A stretch of DNA of 64,000 bases, from positions 42,522 through 106,521 of the forward strand of contig LFSI01000084.1 of NCBI GenBank assembly GCA_001512545.1, written 5' to 3'. Shown piece by piece: positions 8,995 through 26,292 of the stretch. The position numbers were made by a program, and so were the translations under genes. This DNA is from Clostridia bacterium DTU065 (lineage in GTDB: Bacteria; Bacillota; DTU065). Under the pieces are notes generated by a model. The model was not told where the DNA came from. It saw only the letters and a list, made by a program, of their open reading frames with translations, and did not search any database. Every line of letters begins with the position of its first letter. The first letter of the stretch is position 1.

Positions 8995-9759
8995 TTATTC
9001 GAACTTTTTCAGTTCTCGACGCAGTTTCTTCATAATCCGCTTTTCCAGCCGGGAAATATACGACTGGGAGATACCCATTTTGTCTGCCACTTCTTTTTGA
9101 GTGAGTTCGCGGTCGATGCCGATGCCAAAGCGGAGTGTCACGATCTCCTGCTCTCTGGGTTCGAGCTTCAGGAGGGCAGCTTTCAGCAGATTTTTGTCGG
9201 TTTCTTCCTCCAGAACCTGGTACACGCCGTCGCCTTCAGAGGCGGGAAGAACGTCAAGCCAGGAGAGCTCATTTCCGTCCCAGTCTGTGTTTAGCGGGTC
9301 GTCTAAATAGACCTCTTTTGTCCTTTGGTGCCTCCTGAGAAACATCAAAATTTCGTTTTCGATACATCTAGAGGCATAGGTTGCCAGCTTAATGTTCTTG
9401 CCGATGTCAAAGGTGTTTACGGCCTTTATCAATCCGATGGTGCCGATAGACACCAGATCTTCAATGCCTACACCGGTGTTTTCGAACTTCCTGGCAATAT
9501 ATACCACAAGGCGCAGGTTTCTTTCGATAAGAGTGCTCTTAACCGACGCTTCTCCTGCTTGGAGCTTTTTCAGCAGCACCCGTTCTTCTTCTGGAAGAAG
9601 GGGCGGCGGCAGTACCTCGCTAGAGCCGACGTAAAAGACGTGGCGGCGTCTTTTGAGGAACTGGCTGAGAAAGAGCTTAACATCTAGAAGTGAGAGGCCT
9701 TTCAACTTCCCGAAGAGGGTTTTAAGCCATTTCACGCTGCTCACCTCCAGAGTTTGCAA
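8995..9759 (-). CDS. sigE: Pro-sigma-E (RNA polymerase sporulation sigma factor SigE)
   Basis: The [19 protein letters not shown] pro-sequence junction motif is present. [38 protein letters not shown] follows. The C-terminus is [22 protein letters not shown]. The gene overlaps the spoIIGA 3' end, as in Bacillus and Clostridium. The exact start (ATG at 9759 or an internal GTG) is uncertain. Confidence 0.9.
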
Positions 9760-10615
9760 GAAGAAGTGCCGGATGAATCAGCGCTTGATACTCGCCTCGT
9801 TGGCTGAGGGAGCCCGTTTCCAAACCGATGATCACTCCTGGAAGCCTAACTTGTTTGCCTTTATGCTTCAGGTAAACAGAATCAGGCCTGAGTCCCACCA
9901 AAACACCGCTGTCCCGACCTACCGATTTAAACGGAATAAGGACCAAGCGCTTGTTCCAACCTTCTGCGCTGTCCGGATCACCGCCAATTGGCGTCATCTG
10001 CTCTATAGACTGCATGATCTCTGCAGGAACTAGGTTCTTCATCACATCTTTCTCAACGATTACCACTCGTTTGCCACTAACCGGCTCCACAAGTTCGTTA
10101 CCGCTGTCGATGAGAGCTCTGAGTGCCTGCTTCTGCCCATTAATCTCCACAACCAAAGCAATCTGACCGAAACTCTCCCAAAAGCGTTCGTGAAGGAGTC
10201 CCCAACCGATCTCGGCGATGAGGAGCACTGCCACGTGTGGGCCTAAAAGCACCCACACCCGCGCTACATTCATAGACTGCAGCCAGTAGCCGATGCCTCC
10301 TGCGATCAGAGCTAGAAGGTAGACCATAGGCAAAACAGCTTTTAGGTCTCTTTTGTTGAAAGCAAGGAGCACCATAAATGCTGGCATCAAAAGCGACGAG
10401 ACGATCAGAAGCCACGGCGGCAGAGAAAAACCACCTTTGGTTAAAAGCAAAAATGCCAAGTAGTACAGACTGCCTAAAGCGGCGCCTAAAAAAAGCCCAC
10501 CTCGACGCGCTTCTCGATTGGCTATCTCTCCTCCAGCCCAGAGGATCAGATAGTCTCTCCAAAATTCAGCGGCCAGGCAGGCTATTAGTAAGTCGACATA
10601 GACAACAACGGACAT
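9722..10615 (-). CDS. spoIIGA: Sigma-E processing peptidase SpoIIGA
   Basis: Polytopic N-terminus ([22 protein letters not shown]...) with a C-terminal aspartic-protease-like domain. Its position between ftsZ and sigE matches the canonical order. The start is probably the second ATG (10615), preceded by GGAAGGTGG. The tracked ORF begins at 10636. Confidence 0.75.
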
Positions 10616-10685
10616 ACCCTGCCACCTTCCCTTCATTACCTAATAATTACTTGAGAAGGCAGAATTTCCTGCAAAAAGGAAATGT

Positions 10686-11774
10686 TTAGCTTCTGGGTTT
10701 CCTTAAAAAGATCGGTATGTCGATATCGTGACCTGTGGAAAAGGGTTTAATCTCTTCTTTTGTTGCAGCAGCTTCATCTGCACCTTTTTCTCCTTTAACA
10801 TCAAAGCCGGTGGCGATAACGGTAATGCGAACCTCATCCTCGAGTTTCTCATCGATCACGGCACCAAAGATGATGTTGGCATCGGGATCGGCAGACTCGG
10901 AGATGATCTTTGCAGCTTCAGTGATCTCCAACAGGCGAATGTCGGAAGAACCAGTTATGCTGAGAAGGATGCCCTTTGCGCCCATAATGCTTGTTTCCAA
11001 AAGGGGCGAAGAAATCGCCTGCTCTGCAGCGTTGAGCGCTCTGTCGTCGCCTTTGGCGGTACCGATACCCATAATAGCGGTTCCTGCAGACGACATAATC
11101 GCCTTGACGTCGGCAAAATCCAAATTGATGATTCCCGGAACAGCGATCAAGTCGGAAATGCCCTGCACGCCCTGGCGAAGGACGTCATCGGCGATTTTAA
11201 ACGCATCGATAAGGGTTGTGTTCTTCTCTGCGATGTTCAGCAACTTGTCGTTAGGTATAACGATCAGGGTATCGACCTTATCCTTGAGGCAGGCAAGGCC
11301 GGCTTCCGCTTGTATCATCCTCTTTTTGCCTTCGAAGAAAAACGGCTTGGTAACAACGCCAACGGTAAGAGCTCCTGCTTCCCGGGCGATTTCAGCAACA
11401 ACGGGAGCAGCACCTGTTCCAGTACCTCCGCCCATACCAGCTGCAATAAACACCATATCGGAGCCGCTAACCAGGCTGAGGATCTCTTCGCGGGACTCTT
11501 CGGCGGCCTTTTTACCGACTTCCGGATTGGAGCCAGCGCCAAGACCTCTGGTGAGCTTTTCTCCGAGCTGCAGCTTAGTGTCGGCCTTTGACAGAGTCAA
11601 AGCCTGGGCATCGGTGTTCATGGCAATGAACTCCACACCCTTAACTTGTGCCTCGATCATGCGGTTTACCGCGTTGCTGCCGCCGCCACCAATACCTATT
11701 ACTTTAATGCTCCCGATCTGAGGTCTGTCCATATCAAACTCCAGCATATGTTCCCCTCCTACCTTAAAGGCCAC
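10686..11774 (-). CDS. ftsZ: Cell division GTPase FtsZ
   Basis: [19 protein letters not shown] and the tubulin signature [16 protein letters not shown] are present. The true start may be the internal MLEFD at 11747. Confidence 0.95.
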
Positions 11775-12432
11775 GTGCGTAGCCTTTTTGGCTCAAATCA
11801 ATGTATCTGTGCTTCTGTCCGCGTAATGCGATTTCTTTCAACTTCTGTCGTATAACATCGGGTGATTCCAAATTGGTTCCCAAAAACACTTCGCAACCGT
11901 CGGAAATCTTCAGAGTTAGCTTGCCATCATCGCTGACAATCTCCTCCAAACCCAGGTCCCTTGTGGCTTCAACCAGTTCCAAAAGGTAAATGTACTCGCT
12001 GGGAACGGCTTGTCCCGGCATAAATGGGAAAACCGCAAGCCCGTAAATGGTTGGTAGGACGTTGTCTTCTCCGACGGAAAGAATGGTGCCATCTCTTGAC
12101 ACCTGAATCAGGGTACCTGACAGATCGAAGTTTGCTGCAGGCTTCCTTTCCTCAATAGTGACCCTAAGACTGGAAAGCCCTACCACTTCGATGCTTGCTT
12201 TTTTAATGAAGCTGTCTTGGGCTATACGATCTTCCAGCTCTTTAAGATCCAACCACAGAAGGTTTGGCTGGCCAATGACCCTTCTGATACTACCTTCATT
12301 GGCCAGTACAGCGCCAACTACGGTGACCTCTTTAACCCTGAAAACCTGGGTGACTAGCAAAAAACCAGACAATGCCAAGAGGAGAAAGATCAAGCAGCGT
12401 CTCTTCTGCTTCATAGAAGATGGCCTCCTCAA
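11764..12432 (-). CDS. ftsQ: Cell division protein FtsQ/DivIB (POTRA domain)
   Basis: 222 aa with a basic N-terminus, a single TM segment ([15 protein letters not shown]) and a POTRA-like VKEVTVVG block. It overlaps the ftsZ start by 11 nt with no ftsA between them. Confidence 0.7.
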
Positions 12433-19852: not shown

Positions 19853-21910
19853 TTACTGTGAAATAATAGTTAACTCAACGTACTCATCGCTGCCGAGCAT
19901 TTGACCTGCTGCCGGCTTCTGGCTGGCAACGATGCCGTCGGTTTTCGAACCATTGATTTTAATGTTGATTCCCCGAGACAGTGCCACGCTCTGGGCTTCC
20001 GCAAGAGAGAGGCCGATGAAGCGCGGAGTTTCCCTCTGTTCCTGAAGGGCGCAGAAGAGGGTAACGGTGGTGTTCGGCTCCACGAAGAATCCCGGAAGAG
20101 GCTCTTGGCTGGAAACCTTAGCGCCTTCTCCTTTGGCATTAACCCGGAGTCCGAGTTTTGTGAGCTCTTTAACTGCCATATCTCGCGTCATTCCGGTTAG
20201 ATTCGGTACGGCAATGGAGCCTCCTTCGTGCACTCTCGTCCTTACTCCAGTATATTGCAGGGCTGCAGAAGTAAATTCCTTAAAGACAGGAGCGGCTAAA
20301 ACCCCACCATAGTTGCTGTCGGTTTGGGGCTCAAAGATCGCAACTAGAGCAACGATCTGCGGATCGTCGATAGGTGCAAACCCCAAAAACGACACCACCA
20401 TGTCGTCTTCAGAGTAGCCACCGGCAACGGGAATCTGAGCAGTACCAGTCTTTCCTCCTACAGGGAAGCCGGCGATCTCGGCCCTTTGGCCCGAACCGTT
20501 AACTACTACAGAGCGGAGCATCATCTTTATTGTATTTGCTGTACTTTCGGAGATTACCTGTCTGCCGCTGTTACTTTTATCTCTAGATATAATCTTGCCG
20601 TTTTCTTTGTAGCTTTTCACCAGAGAAGGCGTGACCAAGTACCCATCATTAGCTATGGCGCTCATTGCGGTTACCAGCTGCAGCGGCGTAACCGCTATGC
20701 CCTGACCGAAGCCAATGTTTGCCCACGACACCTTGGAGAGGTTCTCTACAGGAGCGAGAATACCGGAAGCCTCACCGATAAAGTCGATGCCGGTTTTCTG
20801 TCCAAAGCCAAAAGCCCTGAGGTACTTATAGAGAACTTCGTGGTCCATGTCTTCTGCTGCCAGCTTGGCAAAGACCGGGTTGCAAGACCTCTCTAGCGCT
20901 TCGAGAAATGTTTCGTGACCGTGCCCCCAAATCGAAGCGCAGCGGATCACCCTATCGCCAACTGTGTATGTCGGCGGATCAAAAACTTCTGTACTGGGGT
21001 TGATGACACCTTCCTCGATGGCCGCAGCGGCCACGAAGACCTTGAAGGTCGAACCAGGCTCAAAGCTCTCGGTTATTGACCAGTTCTTGCGGATACTCAA
21101 GGGGTACTCTGCGAAGTTGTTGGGATCAAAGGATGGATATTCAGCTAATGCCAGGATTTCTCCGGTCTTAGGATCCATTGCTAATAGTATACCCTTTTTG
21201 GCATTGCTACTGATGACTGCCTTTTCGATCTCCCTTTCAGCGATGTGCTGAATAACCGCATCGATCGTAAGATAGAGAGTCACTCCGTTCTGCGGCAGGG
21301 ACTTGGAAGTAAAACCAACTGGTATCTCGCGGCCTGCTGGGTCCTTCTCCACGGTACTGACACCGGGCTCCCCTGCCAAATATCGCTCGTAGGTTACCTC
21401 AATGCCCTCTAGCCCTTGATTGTCGATTCCGGCAATGCCTATTGTTGAAGCTGCCAGGGTACCTTCTGGGTAGTAGCGGCGGGGAAGGCTGACTATACGT
21501 ATGCCTCTCAGGTTCAAGTTTTCGATTTTCGAACGCTTGCCGATGGGAAGATCTCTCGTAAGCCACACAAAGCTTCCGGGTCTTGTGAGGAGTTCATAAA
21601 GCCGCTCTTCACTCATCTCCAAAACTGGAGCCAGTTTTTCTGCAGTTGTCTTGGGATCCTTGATCACGCTAGGATCTGCGTAGACTGCAGGAGTAGGAAT
21701 ACTTTCTGCAAGGATTTTGCCGTTTCGATCCAGAATATCGCCTCTTTCAGGCGTAATGGTGTCGATGCGTAACCTTTGATACAGCGCTCTTTCCGAAAGC
21801 TCAGCAGCATCGACCACCTGCAGCTTAAACAGCTTCAAAACCACAAGTCCATACATCACTATTACCAAAAAAAAGATGAGGCCAAGCCTCATCCTCAATG
21901 CTTTGCTCAT
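19853..21910 (-). CDS. Class B penicillin-binding transpeptidase (FtsI/SpoVD-like) with a C-terminal PASTA domain
   Basis: N-terminal TM segment and dimerisation domain. The transpeptidase motifs are STFK (GSTFKVF), SCN (ERSCNPVF) and KTGT (GGKTGTA). The C-terminal roughly 70 aa are PASTA-like. Confidence 0.85.
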   Translation of the reverse strand: MSKALRMRLGLIFFLVIVMYGLVVLKLFKLQVVDAAELSERALYQRLRIDTITPERGDILDRNGKILAESIPTPAVYADPSVIKDPKTTAEKLAPVLEMSEERLYELLTRPGSFVWLTRDLPIGKRSKIENLNLRGIRIVSLPRRYYPEGTLAASTIGIAGIDNQGLEGIEVTYERYLAGEPGVSTVEKDPAGREIPVGFTSKSLPQNGVTLYLTIDAVIQHIAEREIEKAVISSNAKKGILLAMDPKTGEILALAEYPSFDPNNFAEYPLSIRKNWSITESFEPGSTFKVFVAAAAIEEGVINPSTEVFDPPTYTVGDRVIRCASIWGHGHETFLEALERSCNPVFAKLAAEDMDHEVLYKYLRAFGFGQKTGIDFIGEASGILAPVENLSKVSWANIGFGQGIAVTPLQLVTAMSAIANDGYLVTPSLVKSYKENGKIISRDKSNSGRQVISESTANTIKMMLRSVVVNGSGQRAEIAGFPVGGKTGTAQIPVAGGYSEDDMVVSFLGFAPIDDPQIVALVAIFEPQTDSNYGGVLAAPVFKEFTSAALQYTGVRTRVHEGGSIAVPNLTGMTRDMAVKELTKLGLRVNAKGEGAKVSSQEPLPGFFVEPNTTVTLFCALQEQRETPRFIGLSLAEAQSVALSRGINIKINGSKTDGIVASQKPAAGQMLGSDEYVELTIISQ

Positions 21911-22356
21911 AACAGTTCAGACCCTCCCAATAGACCGTAGAAAAAGTCTAGCAGCCTGTCGAAAAGGCTTGCTGGAACGGCTCCTGCTACAGTGGCAGGT
22001 CCCGCATCGATTCTTTCTGTAGAGGCAGGTCTTGCACTTGGAGGTACTAAAACGACGATTTCTGTGTCGGTGTTGTTAACTAAACCTAAAGACAATGCTA
22101 CTTCTTCCACTCTTTGTAGGGATTGAAGCTCTTTCAACTGGTAATTCAATTGTTTGAGTTTTTCATTTTCCACCTGTAAGAGCTGGTTTGCTTCGGTTAG
22201 TTTCAATGAAAGACTCGACACTTGTCCCTGAAGTACGGCCACAAGCACAAACGGTATGGCGATAATCAGAACCAGGATCACAATAGCAGGAAAGTTCTCT
22301 TCCACTCCCGTCTTCGTCTTCACAGTATGTTGTTTTTTAACTTCTTGGTAGGTCAC
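21907..22356 (-). CDS. ftsL: Cell division protein FtsL (septum formation initiator-like)
   Basis: 149 aa. A single TM helix (IVILVLIIAIPFVLVAVL) is followed by a coiled-coil/leucine-zipper region. It sits between rsmH and the PBP gene. Confidence 0.6.
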   Translation of the reverse strand: MTYQEVKKQHTVKTKTGVEENFPAIVILVLIIAIPFVLVAVLQGQVSSLSLKLTEANQLLQVENEKLKQLNYQLKELQSLQRVEEVALSLGLVNNTDTEIVVLVPPSARPASTERIDAGPATVAGAVPASLFDRLLDFFYGLLGGSELL

Positions 22357-23324
22357 TTTCCCACCTCCTTGTCTGAGTAGATCTTTTCTGCCACCCGCAG
22401 TTTTGCACTGTGAGCCCTTCTGTTTTCCTCCACTTCAAGAGCATCAGGGACAACCGGTTTTTTCGTGATGACCTTTACTATGGGCTTCTTTCCGCAGACA
22501 CAAACCGGAAGTCTCTTCGGACAGGTACACGGGTCTTCCTTTTCCTTAAAGAAGTCCTTCACGATCCGATCCTCCAGACTGTGGAAGGAAATCACGCCCA
22601 GCCTTCCTCCGAGTTTCAGGTGCTCCAAGCCCTTTTCCAAACTAGTTGTGAGAGCACCGAGCTCGTCATTTACCGCAATTCTAATAGCTTGAAAAGTTCT
22701 TTTTGCTGGATGTTGCTCGGAGAGTGCCCTCTTTGGCATGGCTTTCTTGATGACTTCCACCAGTTCAAAAGTAGTGTTGATCGGTCTTGCAATGGCTATC
22801 TGATCGGCGATACGCTTGGCGTAGCGCTCTTCTCCGTACTCTCTTATGATTCTGGTCAGTTCATCCAAGTCGTAGGTGTTGACCACGTCCCAGGCGGTGA
22901 TGCTCTGGCTCTGATCCATCCTCATGTCCAGTTTGGCATCGAAGCGGTAGGAAAAGCCCCTTTCCGGTTCATCGAACTGAGGGGACGAAACCCCCAGGTC
23001 CCAAAAGACACCGTCCACCTCGAACACTGACAGCCTATACAGAACGCTCGACAGCTGCTTAAAGTTGGCGTGGACAACGGTCAGCTGGTCGCCTTTGTAA
23101 ACCAGAGGATTGTCGAATACCTTATGCAAATTAAAGTTTTCCGCAACTTTTTTTATCGCTTCCAAATCCTGATCGAGGGCAATTACGCTTGCTCCCCGAT
23201 CCAAAAAACCCTTGGTGTGGCCACCCCTTCCGAGGGTACAGTCCACTATGGTTTTCCCGGGGCCCGGCTTCATCATCTCAACCGACTCGTGAAACAGAAC
23301 AGGTAAGTGCTCCACGGTTTTCAC
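22353..23324 (-). CDS. rsmH: 16S rRNA m4C1402 methyltransferase RsmH (MraW)
   Basis: IVDCTLGRGGHTKGFL SAM motif, 323 aa, directly downstream of mraZ. Confidence 0.9.
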   Translation of the reverse strand: MKTVEHLPVLFHESVEMMKPGPGKTIVDCTLGRGGHTKGFLDRGASVIALDQDLEAIKKVAENFNLHKVFDNPLVYKGDQLTVVHANFKQLSSVLYRLSVFEVDGVFWDLGVSSPQFDEPERGFSYRFDAKLDMRMDQSQSITAWDVVNTYDLDELTRIIREYGEERYAKRIADQIAIARPINTTFELVEVIKKAMPKRALSEQHPAKRTFQAIRIAVNDELGALTTSLEKGLEHLKLGGRLGVISFHSLEDRIVKDFFKEKEDPCTCPKRLPVCVCGKKPIVKVITKKPVVPDALEVEENRRAHSAKLRVAEKIYSDKEVGK

Positions 23325-23326
23325 CC

Positions 23327-23758
23327 CTAAATTCCAAGATCAACCAGGTTCTCTGCGATCTCGGTAATAGAACTGCTGAACGAATCCATGTACTTCTGCC
23401 AGGCCGCTGGCTCCCAAATCTCGATGCGGTTCGATACACCAACCACCATGGCCTCTTTTTCAATACCGGCGTGGAGTTTGAGGTTGGAAGGAAGGTTAAT
23501 TCTTCCCTGTTTGTCCAGTTCAGCTTCGGCTGCTGCAGACAAAAAGAACCTGGTAAAGGCCCTAACATCAGCTTTCCCGATAGGAAGCTCTTTGAGCCTG
23601 TTGACCATTTTTACCCATTCTTCTTGAGGAAAAAGGAACAAACAGTTATCGAGACCTTTTGTTAATACTGGTGCATTGCCCAACTCATCGCGAAACTTCG
23701 CAGGAATGGTTAGGCGGCTTTTGGTGTCTAAGTTATGTAAGTACTCACCAATAAACAT
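23327..23758 (-). CDS. mraZ: Transcriptional regulator MraZ
   Basis: MFIGEYLHNLDTKSRLTIPAKFRDEL..., duplicated SpoVT/AbrB-like halves. The start is the ATG at 23758. The tracked ORF's first 11 codons are read-through of the operator repeats. Confidence 0.85.
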   Translation of the reverse strand: MFIGEYLHNLDTKSRLTIPAKFRDELGNAPVLTKGLDNCLFLFPQEEWVKMVNRLKELPIGKADVRAFTRFFLSAAAEAELDKQGRINLPSNLKLHAGIEKEAMVVGVSNRIEIWEPAAWQKYMDSFSSSITEIAENLVDLGI

Positions 23759-23763
23759 AAGGT

Positions 23764-23815
23764 CACCCCACTTTCCCCCACTTTGCCCCACTTATGGTGC
23801 TTATTCCACACTTTT
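23764..23815 (-). promoter_or_regulatory. Putative MraZ operator: phased direct GTGGG repeats just 5' of mraZ
   Basis: On the coding strand the sequence is AAAGTGTGG-n12-AAGTGGGG-CAAAGTGGGG-GAAAGTGGGG-TGACCTT-ATG. The GTGGG cores (plus-strand CCCAC at 23767, 23777, 23787) sit exactly 10 bp apart. A GTGTG variant lies 20 bp further upstream, on the same helical face. Confidence 0.55.
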
Positions 23816-23993
23816 ATATGATCTCCTTCAACCTCACAAAGAAAAATTGCATTTTTTTGAAAAAAAAACGCCTCAAGCGAACGCTTGAGGTCTTTAAAAC
23901 TAGCTTTTATTGACGAAATACCTTAGAATATGTTTAATAGCTTAAATTCCCATCAACTAACTTGTATTACAATCCTTGGAAAGGTGTGTATAA

Positions 23994-24653
23994 ATGAAAG
24001 CAGTTCTTTTTGACATGGATGGCACTATGTTGAAAACAGAGAACATCGCAATTCCGGCATTTCAAATGACATTTGCCGAACTGAGAAAGCGAGGTCTGTA
24101 CTCCGGCGAAACCCCCAGTGAAGAGAAGTTCTTAAAGCAGCTGGGAAATACCCTGGAAGCTATTTGGGAAACTATACTGCCGAACACAGACTGGGAGACC
24201 AGGCTCCTTGCAGACCGAATCATGCTTGAGTCTGAACTTGAGATCATCCGCAGTGGCGGGCTAACCTTCTTCCCCGGAGTAGAAGACACTCTGCGATTGC
24301 TGAAGAAGAAAGGTTACGATCTCTTTGTTGCCAGTAACGGTCTGGAAAACTACATTTCCGCCATTGTTGAGCACAGCGGTTTTGGCGAGCTGTTCACAGA
24401 TCTGTACAGCGCCGGACGCTTCCAAACTAAAACCAAAGTGGATTTAGTAGCCAAACTGCTCAGAGACTATCCTGTTACAACCGGCTACATGGTCGGAGAC
24501 AGAAAGTCCGATGTAGAGGCCGGGATCAAGAACAACCTGCCGACTATCGGGTGCCTCTTTGGCTATGGCGGACAGAAAGAGTTAGAAGGTGCTACCTATA
24601 TTATTGAGAGCTTTTCTGAGCTTCCTGCAATCATTCAGTTAATAGCTGCGTAG
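23994..24653 (+). CDS. HAD-superfamily hydrolase (phosphatase, PGP-like)
   Basis: The MKAVLFDMDGTML motif I (DxDGT) is present. A later GDRKSD motif is present too. 219 aa. Confidence 0.7.
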   Translation: MKAVLFDMDGTMLKTENIAIPAFQMTFAELRKRGLYSGETPSEEKFLKQLGNTLEAIWETILPNTDWETRLLADRIMLESELEIIRSGGLTFFPGVEDTLRLLKKKGYDLFVASNGLENYISAIVEHSGFGELFTDLYSAGRFQTKTKVDLVAKLLRDYPVTTGYMVGDRKSDVEAGIKNNLPTIGCLFGYGGQKELEGATYIIESFSELPAIIQLIAA

Positions 24654-24925
24654 TCAAAGATCAAAAGCTCTCCTTCGCGAACGATCTTATTCTCCTTTCC
24701 ATTTAATCGCATCAGATACCAGATGACCTCATTGGCATCGTGGTCTGGTGCGATTTTTTTGGCAATGCTCCACAAACTATCTCCCTTTTCCACCACAATG
24801 CTAATCTTTTTACCCTGGACCGCGTTGCTGGCTTTGCCTTTATCGATGGCAAGGAGCGAAACGATAAGTACTAATACTACAACACACAAAAGGGATCTAA
24901 TGCGCTGCTTTCTCACTGAAGCCAC
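24635..24925 (-). CDS. LysM-domain membrane protein; putative SOS-induced division inhibitor (YneA-like)
   Basis: Transcribed divergently from lexA. A GTG start at 24925 with SD AAAGGTGAG gives a roughly 96-aa protein. A TM helix (LLCVVVLVLIVSLLAI) is followed by a LysM-like segment (VEKGDSLWSIAKKIA...ANEVIWYLMRLNG). The longer tracked ORF would run through the LexA boxes. Confidence 0.5.
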   Translation of the reverse strand: MASVRKQRIRSLLCVVVLVLIVSLLAIDKGKASNAVQGKKISIVVEKGDSLWSIAKKIAPDHDANEVIWYLMRLNGKENKIVREGELLIFDYAAIN

Positions 24926-24940
24926 CTCACCTTTGTTGTG

Positions 24941-25010
24941 CGAACATATGTTCAATATCATCATATACCGCACATATGTTCGTGTCAAGAAAAAAATGAA
25001 CATTTGTTTG
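24941..25010. promoter_or_regulatory. SOS operator region: three Cheo (LexA) boxes in the lexA/yneA divergent promoter
   Basis: CGAACATATGTTCA at 24941-24954 and CGCACATATGTTCG at 24969-24982 each have one mismatch to CGAACN4GTTCG. The weaker TGAACATTTGTTTG at 24997-25010 overlaps the -35 of a TTGTTT-n17-TGtTATACT promoter (25008-25036). Confidence 0.7.
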
Positions 25011-25103
25011 TTTTATCAGGCGGCCTGTGTTATACTAAAGCTGAGATCTACAGTGCGGCTTAATCTGGTTCTTTGTATTTTCTGGAGGTTAGGGGGTGTT
25101 CTT

Positions 25104-25727
25104 GTGTCTGCGAAATCCGAACTGTCTAAGCGAGAAGAGCAAATCCTGGATCTTCTCAAGAAAGGGATAGCTGAAAACGGTTATCCTCCGACCGTCAGGG
25201 AGATCTGCGCACAGACCGGACTGCGATCTACAGCAACTGTGCACGGCTATCTAAAGAAGCTAGAACAAAAGGGCTACATCATCAAAGCCGATGACAAACC
25301 AAGGGCTATCACGCTCATCGGCAACGAAGACTTCTTTTCGTCCTCTCTAGAAGCGGCTTTGGTTCCCCTCGTTGGCGAAGTTGCAGCTGGACAGCCAATA
25401 CTGGCAAGCGAAAACATAGAGGCTACGTATCCGTTGCCCAAAGATCTGGTAAAAGGTGAAGAGTGTTTCCTTCTGCGCGTTAAAGGCGAGAGCATGATTG
25501 AAGCTGGCATTCTCCCAGGCGACTTGGTCCTAGTAAGGCGCCAGCAAGCAGCCTCAAACGGCGATATTGTGGTGGCCCTTCTTGAAGATGAAGCTACTGT
25601 AAAAACTTTCTATAAGGAAAAAAATGCAGTGCGACTTCAGCCGGAAAACTCAACCATGGAGCCGATCTACACCAAAGACGTTGCGATTTTAGGGAAAGTA
25701 ATCGGTTTGATCCGGAGTATGTCTTAA
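25104..25727 (+). CDS. lexA: LexA repressor
   Basis: A GTG start follows AGGGGGTG. The N-terminal wHTH reads EQILDLLKKGIAENGYPPTVREICAQTGLRSTATVHGYLKKLEQKGYI. The cleavage region is LVGEVAAGQP. The S24 Ser/Lys dyad is present (VKGESMIEAG ... TVKTFYK). 207 aa. Confidence 0.9.
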   Translation: MSAKSELSKREEQILDLLKKGIAENGYPPTVREICAQTGLRSTATVHGYLKKLEQKGYIIKADDKPRAITLIGNEDFFSSSLEAALVPLVGEVAAGQPILASENIEATYPLPKDLVKGEECFLLRVKGESMIEAGILPGDLVLVRRQQAASNGDIVVALLEDEATVKTFYKEKNAVRLQPENSTMEPIYTKDVAILGKVIGLIRSMS

Positions 25728-26218: not shown

Positions 26219-26292
26219 CTAGACCACCGCCTACAGTGTGTGTTAGACATAGAACTAATTCTACTTATTCTTAACAGGCGGAGATAATCCTT

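Follow-up and report, generated by a model that had tools for sequence, protein, structure and literature searches.

The window, by which we mean the whole stretch of 64,000 nucleotides that was analysed, carries on its minus strand a dcw cluster that is headed by mraZ and continues with rsmH, a small ftsL-like ORF and a gene for a class B PBP with PASTA domains (Table 1). Beyond the PBP gene come murE, murF, mraY, ftsW/spoVE, murG, murA, a 222-aa ORF, ftsZ, spoIIGA and sigE. Such a gene order is canonical for the dcw cluster of Bacillota that form endospores, endospore formation being indicated here by the presence of spoIIGA and sigE directly in the cluster. The 222-aa ORF (12432-11764, minus strand), which lies between murA and ftsZ, has no NCBIfam match at E<=1e-10, and no FtsA was identified where the cluster passes into ftsZ, spoIIGA and sigE (8995-12432, minus strand).

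The upstream neighbour of mraZ is a divergent gene for a HAD-family hydrolase. In the intergenic region between the two, about 40 nt at 23895-23945 (plus-strand reading) are conserved with the two closest relatives (L001 and L002, described below), and this segment holds TTGACG-N17-TTTAAT on the plus strand. The HAD gene could plausibly have its housekeeping promoter here, which our promoter scan missed owing to its A-at-position-2 rule. Nearer to mraZ there is a hairpin followed by a T-run, which looks like an intrinsic terminator that insulates the mraZ promoter. Both L001 and L002 have a hairpin and T-run at the same position, with a different sequence. It sits between the mraZ promoter and the divergent HAD gene, and there is no co-directional upstream gene for which it could serve in termination. 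The AGGA of the -35 region is part of the 3' arm of the hairpin in Negativicutes such as Sporomusa.

Table 1. Features at and around the mraZ promoter, with positions in the window.
Feature	Position	Strand	Remarks
MraZ box 1 (TAAGTGGGGC)	23785..23794	-	GTGG core 23791-23788; first unit of the exact 10-bp array
MraZ box 2 (AAAGTGGGGG)	23775..23784	-	GTGG core 23781-23778
MraZ box 3 (AAAGTGGGGT)	23765..23774	-	GTGG core 23771-23768; overlaps the ribosome-binding site
Variant copy AAAGTGTGG	23806..23814	-	Doubtful as MraZ box; 3' part is the RnnGAAT of the predicted -10
Predicted -35 AGGA, sigma-H-type	23824..23827	-	Motif conserved upstream of the boxes
Predicted -10 GAAT (context GTGGAAT)	23803..23806	-	17 nt from AGGA
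Predicted TSS region	23792..23795	-	8-11 nt after GAAT, immediately before box 1; inferred from C. difficile distances
Likely Shine-Dalgarno GGGGTGA	23763..23769	-	4 nt upstream of ATG, shared with box 3
mraZ CDS, 143 aa	23327..23758	-	Start ATG 23758; Pfam MraZ (PF02381) 8.3e-40
Spurious in-frame N-terminal extension MGQSGGKWGDL	23759..23791	-	GTG 23791 is the first three bases of box 1
Presumed extent of the mra operon under the array	19853..23324	-	
rsmH (RsmH/MraW)	23324-22353	-	Pfam; presumed under the operator
ftsL-like small ORF	22356-21907	-	Presumed under the operator
Class B PBP with PASTA domains	21910-19853	-	Pfam; presumed under the operator
Hairpin CCTCAAGCGTTCGCTTGAGG, then CG and T9 run	23861..23890	-	8-bp stem; about 35 nt upstream of the predicted -35
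HAD-family hydrolase gene	23994-24653		Divergent from mraZ, upstream neighbour

The array is on the minus strand, which is the coding strand of mraZ, and consists of three AAGTGGGG units directly upstream of the gene, with GTGGG cores that start at 23791, 23781 and 23771 and thus have a period of exactly 10 bp, or 6-nt spacers if GTGG is taken as the core. Read in the direction of transcription of mraZ the order is AAAGTGTGG (23814-23806), AATAAGCACCAT (12 nt), AAGTGGGG (23793-23786), CAAAGTGGGG (23785-23776), GAAAGTGGGG (23775-23766), TGACCTT and the ATG (23758-23756), and there are 9 nt between the last GTGG of the array and the mraZ start at 23758. An initial annotation of this DNA had pointed to three phased GTGGG repeats at 23764-23815, with a GTGTG variant two helical turns further upstream; the sequence bears out the exact 10-bp period, the coordinates bracket the array to within 1-2 nt, and the variant is indeed present, starting at 23811, 20 bp before the first core. 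The pattern GTGGG-N5-GTGGG-N5-GTGGG has one match in the 64-kb window, both strands included, and was found in 0 of 100 dinucleotide-preserving shuffles. AAGTGKG-N3-AAGTGKG has just two matches, which overlap each other and are both in the array, against 0.13 expected.

The array also settles the start of mraZ. The mechanical ORF list takes the gene 33 nt upstream of ATG 23758, in frame, to GTG 23791, to give MGQSGGKWGDL-MFIGEY as the N-terminus. However in 80 genome and 80 metagenome homologues the alignment begins at residue 1 of the query, the M of MFIGEY, or in one locus at residue 2, and M1 of the M. genitalium protein (PDB 9qlr) falls on M1 of the window MraZ in an alignment that is gap-free through residue 102 (match over residues 1-140, phmmer E 2e-18). 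The same artefact is seen in L001, with a 154-aa ORF (1468-1932) that begins on the GTG of its first box. These observations and the GGGGTGA 4 nt before the ATG agree with the earlier explanation that the repeats caused the over-extension of the ORF; the extension is spurious and the true start is ATG 23758.

For comparison with other organisms we used a genome set of 81 loci, comprising 80 genomes of the GTDB species set and the window, and a metagenome set of 78 usable loci as an independent replication of the genome survey. The closest genomes are two unclassified Bacillota MAGs, L001 and L002, with MraZ identities of 80% and 78% respectively; the others have at most 59%, and a scan of metagenomes for closer relatives gave none above 57%. 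The initial annotation had proposed that the dcw promoters of relatives be aligned to see if the phase of the repeats is kept, and it is. All 81 genome loci have GTGG-N6-GTGG-N6-GTGG on the coding strand, in the 150 nt that precede mraZ, a count which, as the loci are phylogenetically related, overstates the number of independent events, and the pattern has 0 matches in a control of 515,702 nt made up of the rest of the same loci, both strands. In the metagenome set it is present in 73 of the 78 loci, the other 5 having one-mismatch variants (ATGG, GTAG or GTGA), again with 0 matches in the control (160,444 nt). When both sets are joined the triple GTGG is found at 154 of 159 orthologous promoters, with 0 matches in 676 kb of control sequence.

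It is thus the number, phase and orientation of the repeats that are kept in the orthologous promoters. The 10-bp spacing is exact in every locus, whereas the distance from array to start codon varies from 9 to 89 nt. The consensus of the unit across the 81 loci is AAAGTGG followed by T, G or A in that order of preference, so that the family norm is GTGGT, and the window is one of only a few loci (4/81) with GTGGG in all three boxes.

With regard to the protein that would read these boxes, the window MraZ has D11-x-K13-x-R15 and D82-x-x-x-R86, the two DXXXR motifs. D11, K13 and R15 are present in 81/81 loci, and K13, R15 and R86 are identical in the window MraZ and PDB 9qlr. In that cryo-EM complex of M. 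genitalium one subunit is bound per GTG(G/T) box, with 6-nt spacers between boxes, and K13, R15 and R86 contact bases in the major groove. In B. subtilis the MraZ-binding repeats (MBRs) and R15 and R86 are needed for repression of Pmra; there are three GTGG[A/T]G motifs with 4-nt spacers, and the Firmicutes consensus has been given as GTGGNNNNNAGTGGNGNNNNGTGG (White et al., 10.1101/2022.02.09.479790). The window array fits this published consensus. Only for B. subtilis, M. genitalium, E. coli and B. cenocepacia has it been demonstrated that MraZ binds and that repression depends on the boxes.

The window thus has three direct repeats whose GTG(G/T) cores recur every 10 bp. They lie on the coding strand, directly upstream of the mraZ gene that heads a dcw cluster, and the MraZ of the window keeps the base-contacting residues. 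We accept the operator reading because of the conservation of phase, the agreement with the published consensus and the conservation of the DNA-reading residues, and conclude that the three AAAGTGGGG units are very probably the operator of the MraZ encoded immediately downstream. The initial annotation had already called this an MraZ operator, and the identity of the gene, the conservation of the triple box, the agreement with GTGGNNNNNAGTGGNGNNNNGTGG and the retention of K13, R15 and R86 all support that assignment. It had also mentioned AAAGTG[T/G] repeats, and this form has been reported as the MraZ motif of Mollicutes.

The promoter from which the cluster is transcribed is less easily assigned. 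In the alignment of the relatives the boxes are directly preceded by G(A/C)AGGA(T/A)TT and then GAAT, the AGGA and the GAAT being separated by exactly 17 nt. The SigH motif derived from mapped start sites of Sporomusa comprises AGGA and GAAT with a 17-18 nt spacer (PMC12456013), and the -35 AGGA and -10 GAAT of the window are at 17 nt. AGGA-N17-GAAN, with up to one mismatch, is present in 67 of the 81 loci compared with 91 of 1620 control windows (5.6%), and the stricter AGGA-N17-GAA in 44 of 73 metagenome loci, a conservation at orthologous promoters that goes beyond chance. The loci with the sigma-H-type motif span Clostridia, Negativicutes and Tissierellia. Within the window the motif occurs at chance frequency (6 matches to AGGA-N17/18-GAAT against 5.8 expected), and the sigma-H assignment therefore rests only on conservation across species.

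On balance we lean towards a promoter of sigma-H type in the window. No sigH gene is visible in the 64 kb, but SigH is to be expected in the organism as it is an endospore former, with spoIIGA and sigE. A sigma-70 scan of 23300-24300 gave no promoter-like site that passed the thresholds. Inspection by eye suggested two -35/-10 pairs, TTGAAG-N17-TGGAAT and TTTGTG-N16-TATAAA, but both are weak and lack conservation, and we do not put them forward.

In C. difficile the dcw region includes ftsZ, spoVD and CD2657 under SigH, the ftsZ promoter having GTGGAAT as its -10 context, and in the mapped SigH promoters of that species the distance from GAAT to the transcription start site (TSS) is 8-11 nt (PMC7438776). 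We found no published link between SigH and mraZ; there are 0 mentions of mraZ in the main text of PMC7438776 and likewise in that of PMC12456013, and in the text of the Sporomusa supplements MraZ is listed just in a table of expression data, where neither a TSS nor a sigma factor was found assigned to it.

The predicted -10 (GAAT, 23806-23803) ends 11 nt before box 1. If the C. difficile distances apply, the boxes would be at and just downstream of the predicted TSS, where they would cover the whole of a leader of about 35 nt. The initial annotation held that boxes lying only in the 5' untranslated region would speak against an operator. That argument is not valid, as this is the usual position in the species studied: box 1 of M. 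genitalium contains the TSS, and the repeats of B. cenocepacia, "as in E. coli", follow the -10 and overlap the TSS (Eraso et al. 2014, cited in PMC7761207).

The solved M. genitalium complex suggests by analogy how such an operator may work, and we infer binding and repression by MraZ. The MraZ oligomer would open up, and the "cradle" motif (K13, R15 and R86) of three adjacent subunits would enter major grooves that follow one another, three in all, along a single face of the DNA, with one subunit per GTGG box and the subunits 10 bp apart. The array extends from about 11 nt past the predicted -10 to the ribosome-binding site, and would thus span the TSS and the whole of the initial transcribed region; because it covers these, bound MraZ would be expected to block either binding or escape of RNA polymerase. 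The outcome would be negative autoregulation of mraZ, rsmH, ftsL and the PBP gene, and probably of further dcw genes.

Box 3 and the ribosome-binding site are combined in an unusual way in the window. The GGGGTGA that forms part of box 3 is presumably complementary to the 3' end of 16S rRNA, with one mismatch to GAGGTGA. Just three loci, the window, L001 and L002, have a distance of 9 nt from box 3 to the start codon; most of the other genome loci have 27-32 nt. The lineage of the window thus lacks the spacer of about 20 nt that usually separates box 3 from the ribosome-binding site, and box 3 (GTGGGGTGA) serves at the same time as Shine-Dalgarno sequence. The relatives have a Shine-Dalgarno sequence of GGTGG or GGGGT type in the same place, and their ribosome-binding region usually includes another GTG[GT], GGTGG being found in 39 loci and GGAGG in 5.

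The position of this extra GTG[GT] in the relatives (L003-L160) is tighter with respect to box 3 than to the start codon: of the 121 such elements, which come from loci with shared ancestry, 64 are at +20 or +21 from box 3, while the distances to the start codon are spread over 8-15 nt. In two loci with leaders of 72-77 nt the extra element is still at +20/21 from box 3. This suggests that many Clostridia and Negativicutes have a fourth, skipped-phase MraZ box after box 3, and the layout in the window would then be the same arrangement with the 20-nt spacer lost.

The two sets of observations can be put together in a scheme that we offer tentatively, as a possibility. The mra/dcw genes of Clostridia, Negativicutes and Tissierellia would be transcribed from a sigma-H-type promoter (AGGA-N17-GAAT) in place of a housekeeping promoter, with the MraZ boxes on the start site, and most of the operators would have a fourth box, not described before, exactly two turns after box 3, within the unusual GGTGG Shine-Dalgarno sequence; in the window the spacer would have collapsed, with box 3 as the ribosome-binding site and a leader that is all operator. 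This would couple a transition-phase and sporulation sigma factor to autorepression by MraZ. The sigma-H-type promoter and the phased box in the ribosome-binding site bear on the relatives more than on the window itself.

There remains the GTGTG copy upstream of the array, which the initial annotation had included as part of the operator. If AAAGTGTGG (23814-23806) were a genuine fourth MraZ box, then MraZ bound there would occlude the -10 directly. It fits the Mollicutes type AAAGTG[T/G] and is exactly 20 bp from box 1; further, M. genitalium MraZ at high concentration tolerates altered spacing and missing middle boxes, and the relatives commonly have a skipped-phase GTG[GT] beyond the opposite end of the array, 20-21 nt past box 3. 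However just one of the 81 loci, which is the window, has GTG[GT] at an offset of -20 relative to box 1, and at the equivalent position L001 has GGGGA and L002 has AGGGA, with the adjacent GAAT conserved. The GTGGAAT context of a -10 also occurs in SigH promoters that have no link with MraZ, and as GTG[GT] has a background of about 1.8% per position a single copy close to the array may easily arise by chance. We consider a four-box operator of this kind unlikely. Most likely the GTGTG copy belongs to the -10 region (GTGGAAT) that it overlaps and is not a conserved fourth box, and it is probably no part of the operator.

Other explanations have been considered for the three main boxes. A G-quadruplex has been reported downstream of PmraZ in the mraZ promoter region of S. 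aureus, and claimed to be conserved (PMC11796246), and the array tract scores 2.12 with G4Hunter over 25 nt, more than any other part of the 64 kb; the G-runs might on this basis fold, either in the non-template DNA strand or in the leader of the mRNA, into a structure that lowers transcription or translation. However there are only three tracts of three or more G, so that the canonical motif of four such tracts with short loops is absent and a two-tetrad fold is the most that could form. Nor are the G-tracts conserved in the orthologous promoters, as 44 of the 81 loci have no GGG in any box and only 4 have it in all three. What is conserved is GTGG at a 10-bp phase and not the G-runs, and the 10-bp period and strict orientation are suited to protein contacts on one face of a duplex. 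We reject a G-quadruplex as the main function on the number of tracts and the lack of conservation of the G-runs, and consider it very unlikely to account for the array.

The possibility that the AAGUGGGG units act at the RNA level, in the 5' untranslated region, as Shine-Dalgarno-like sites for ribosome standby or as sites for an RNA-binding protein, seems to us remote. It is true that the predicted TSS puts the whole array in the leader of about 35 nt, that box 3 overlaps the Shine-Dalgarno sequence and that a Shine-Dalgarno sequence of GGTGG type predominates over GGAGG in the relatives (39 loci to 5). Against this, the spacing is everywhere exactly 10 bp, the helical repeat of DNA, while the distance to the start codon varies over the 9-89 nt given above; the predicted fold of the leader is weak (-8.9 kcal/mol); and the action of MraZ on such boxes as duplex DNA has been demonstrated both structurally and genetically. 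An Rfam scan of the whole window at gathering thresholds gave no family match and thus no known leader RNA.

A chance G-rich repeat without function, in favour of which only the short length of the element can be cited, is excluded, given that the pattern arose in 0 of 100 shuffles and is conserved at 154 of 159 orthologous promoters, with no match in 676 kb of control.

As an MraZ operator, the array can be compared with those already studied. A close parallel is with the MBRs of Pmra in B. subtilis, which likewise comprise three GTGG-core boxes, repeated every 10 bp on the coding strand and placed directly upstream of mraZ, with a hairpin terminator just upstream of the promoter and conserved DXXXR motifs, including R15 and R86, in the protein. 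They differ in that the window boxes are GTGGGG where B. subtilis has GTGG[A/T]G, and in that B. subtilis has about 18 nt from box 3 to the start and a separate AAGGAG, in contrast to the 9 nt and the dual role of box 3 in the window. The AGGA-N17-GAAT of the window is not evident in the B. subtilis sequence (Table S5, White et al.). M. genitalium shares boxes of GTG(G/T) form set apart by 6-nt spacers, K13, R15 and R86 in identical positions, and boxes that begin at the TSS, which is measured there and predicted in the window. It differs in having four contiguous AAAGTG[T/G] boxes compared with three contiguous GTGGG boxes in the window, and the promoter types are also different.

The proteobacterial repeat units differ from those of the window, and so do the leader lengths. 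The E. coli MraZ repeats are TGGGN with 5-nt spacers. According to PMC7761207, E. coli Pmra and B. cenocepacia PmraBc resemble the window in having direct repeats with a 10-bp period downstream of the -10 and over the TSS, with autorepression of the dcw operon, and B. cenocepacia has four 7-nt repeats with 3-nt spacers. For the promoter, the AGGA, 17 nt and GAAT are shared with SigH promoters of C. difficile (PMC7438776) and Sporomusa sphaeroides (PMC12456013), and the GTGGAAT context is identical to that of the C. difficile ftsZ SigH promoter, although for the window it is conservation of the motif only that makes the connection.

We thus regard the array as in all likelihood a standard MraZ operator, in a Bacillota lineage not yet characterised, of an arrangement that has been well described elsewhere. 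The established picture of MraZ as an autorepressor acting on 10-bp-phased GTG(G/T) boxes is unchanged. For annotation the value of the array is that it sets the start of mraZ at ATG 23758 and not GTG 23791, and it marks the 5' boundary, and the likely autoregulation, of the dcw operon in an uncultured lineage of endospore-forming Bacillota. What the survey adds is that the three-box GTGG operator is essentially universal over about 150 clostridial and negativicute promoters, and that it usually has a sigma-H-type motif before it and, in many cases, an additional phased box after it, within the ribosome-binding site.

Two other observations were made in the region upstream of the cluster. There is a second intergenic match to AGGA-N17-GAAT at 26267-26291 on the minus strand, about 49 nt upstream of a 116-aa ORF (26218-25868) for which no Pfam family was found. 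At 24635-25727, about 1 kb from the dcw promoter, there is a divergent pair of genes that resembles the lexA-yneA SOS division-inhibitor module of B. subtilis. One member is LexA (plus strand, ORF ending at 25727) and the other a small ORF (minus strand, 25003-24635) with a weak LysM match that is just under the Pfam cutoff (20.6 compared with 20.9 bits, E 4.5e-4), and the sole GAACATATGTTC Cheo box of the window (24942-24953) is situated between LexA and the small ORF.
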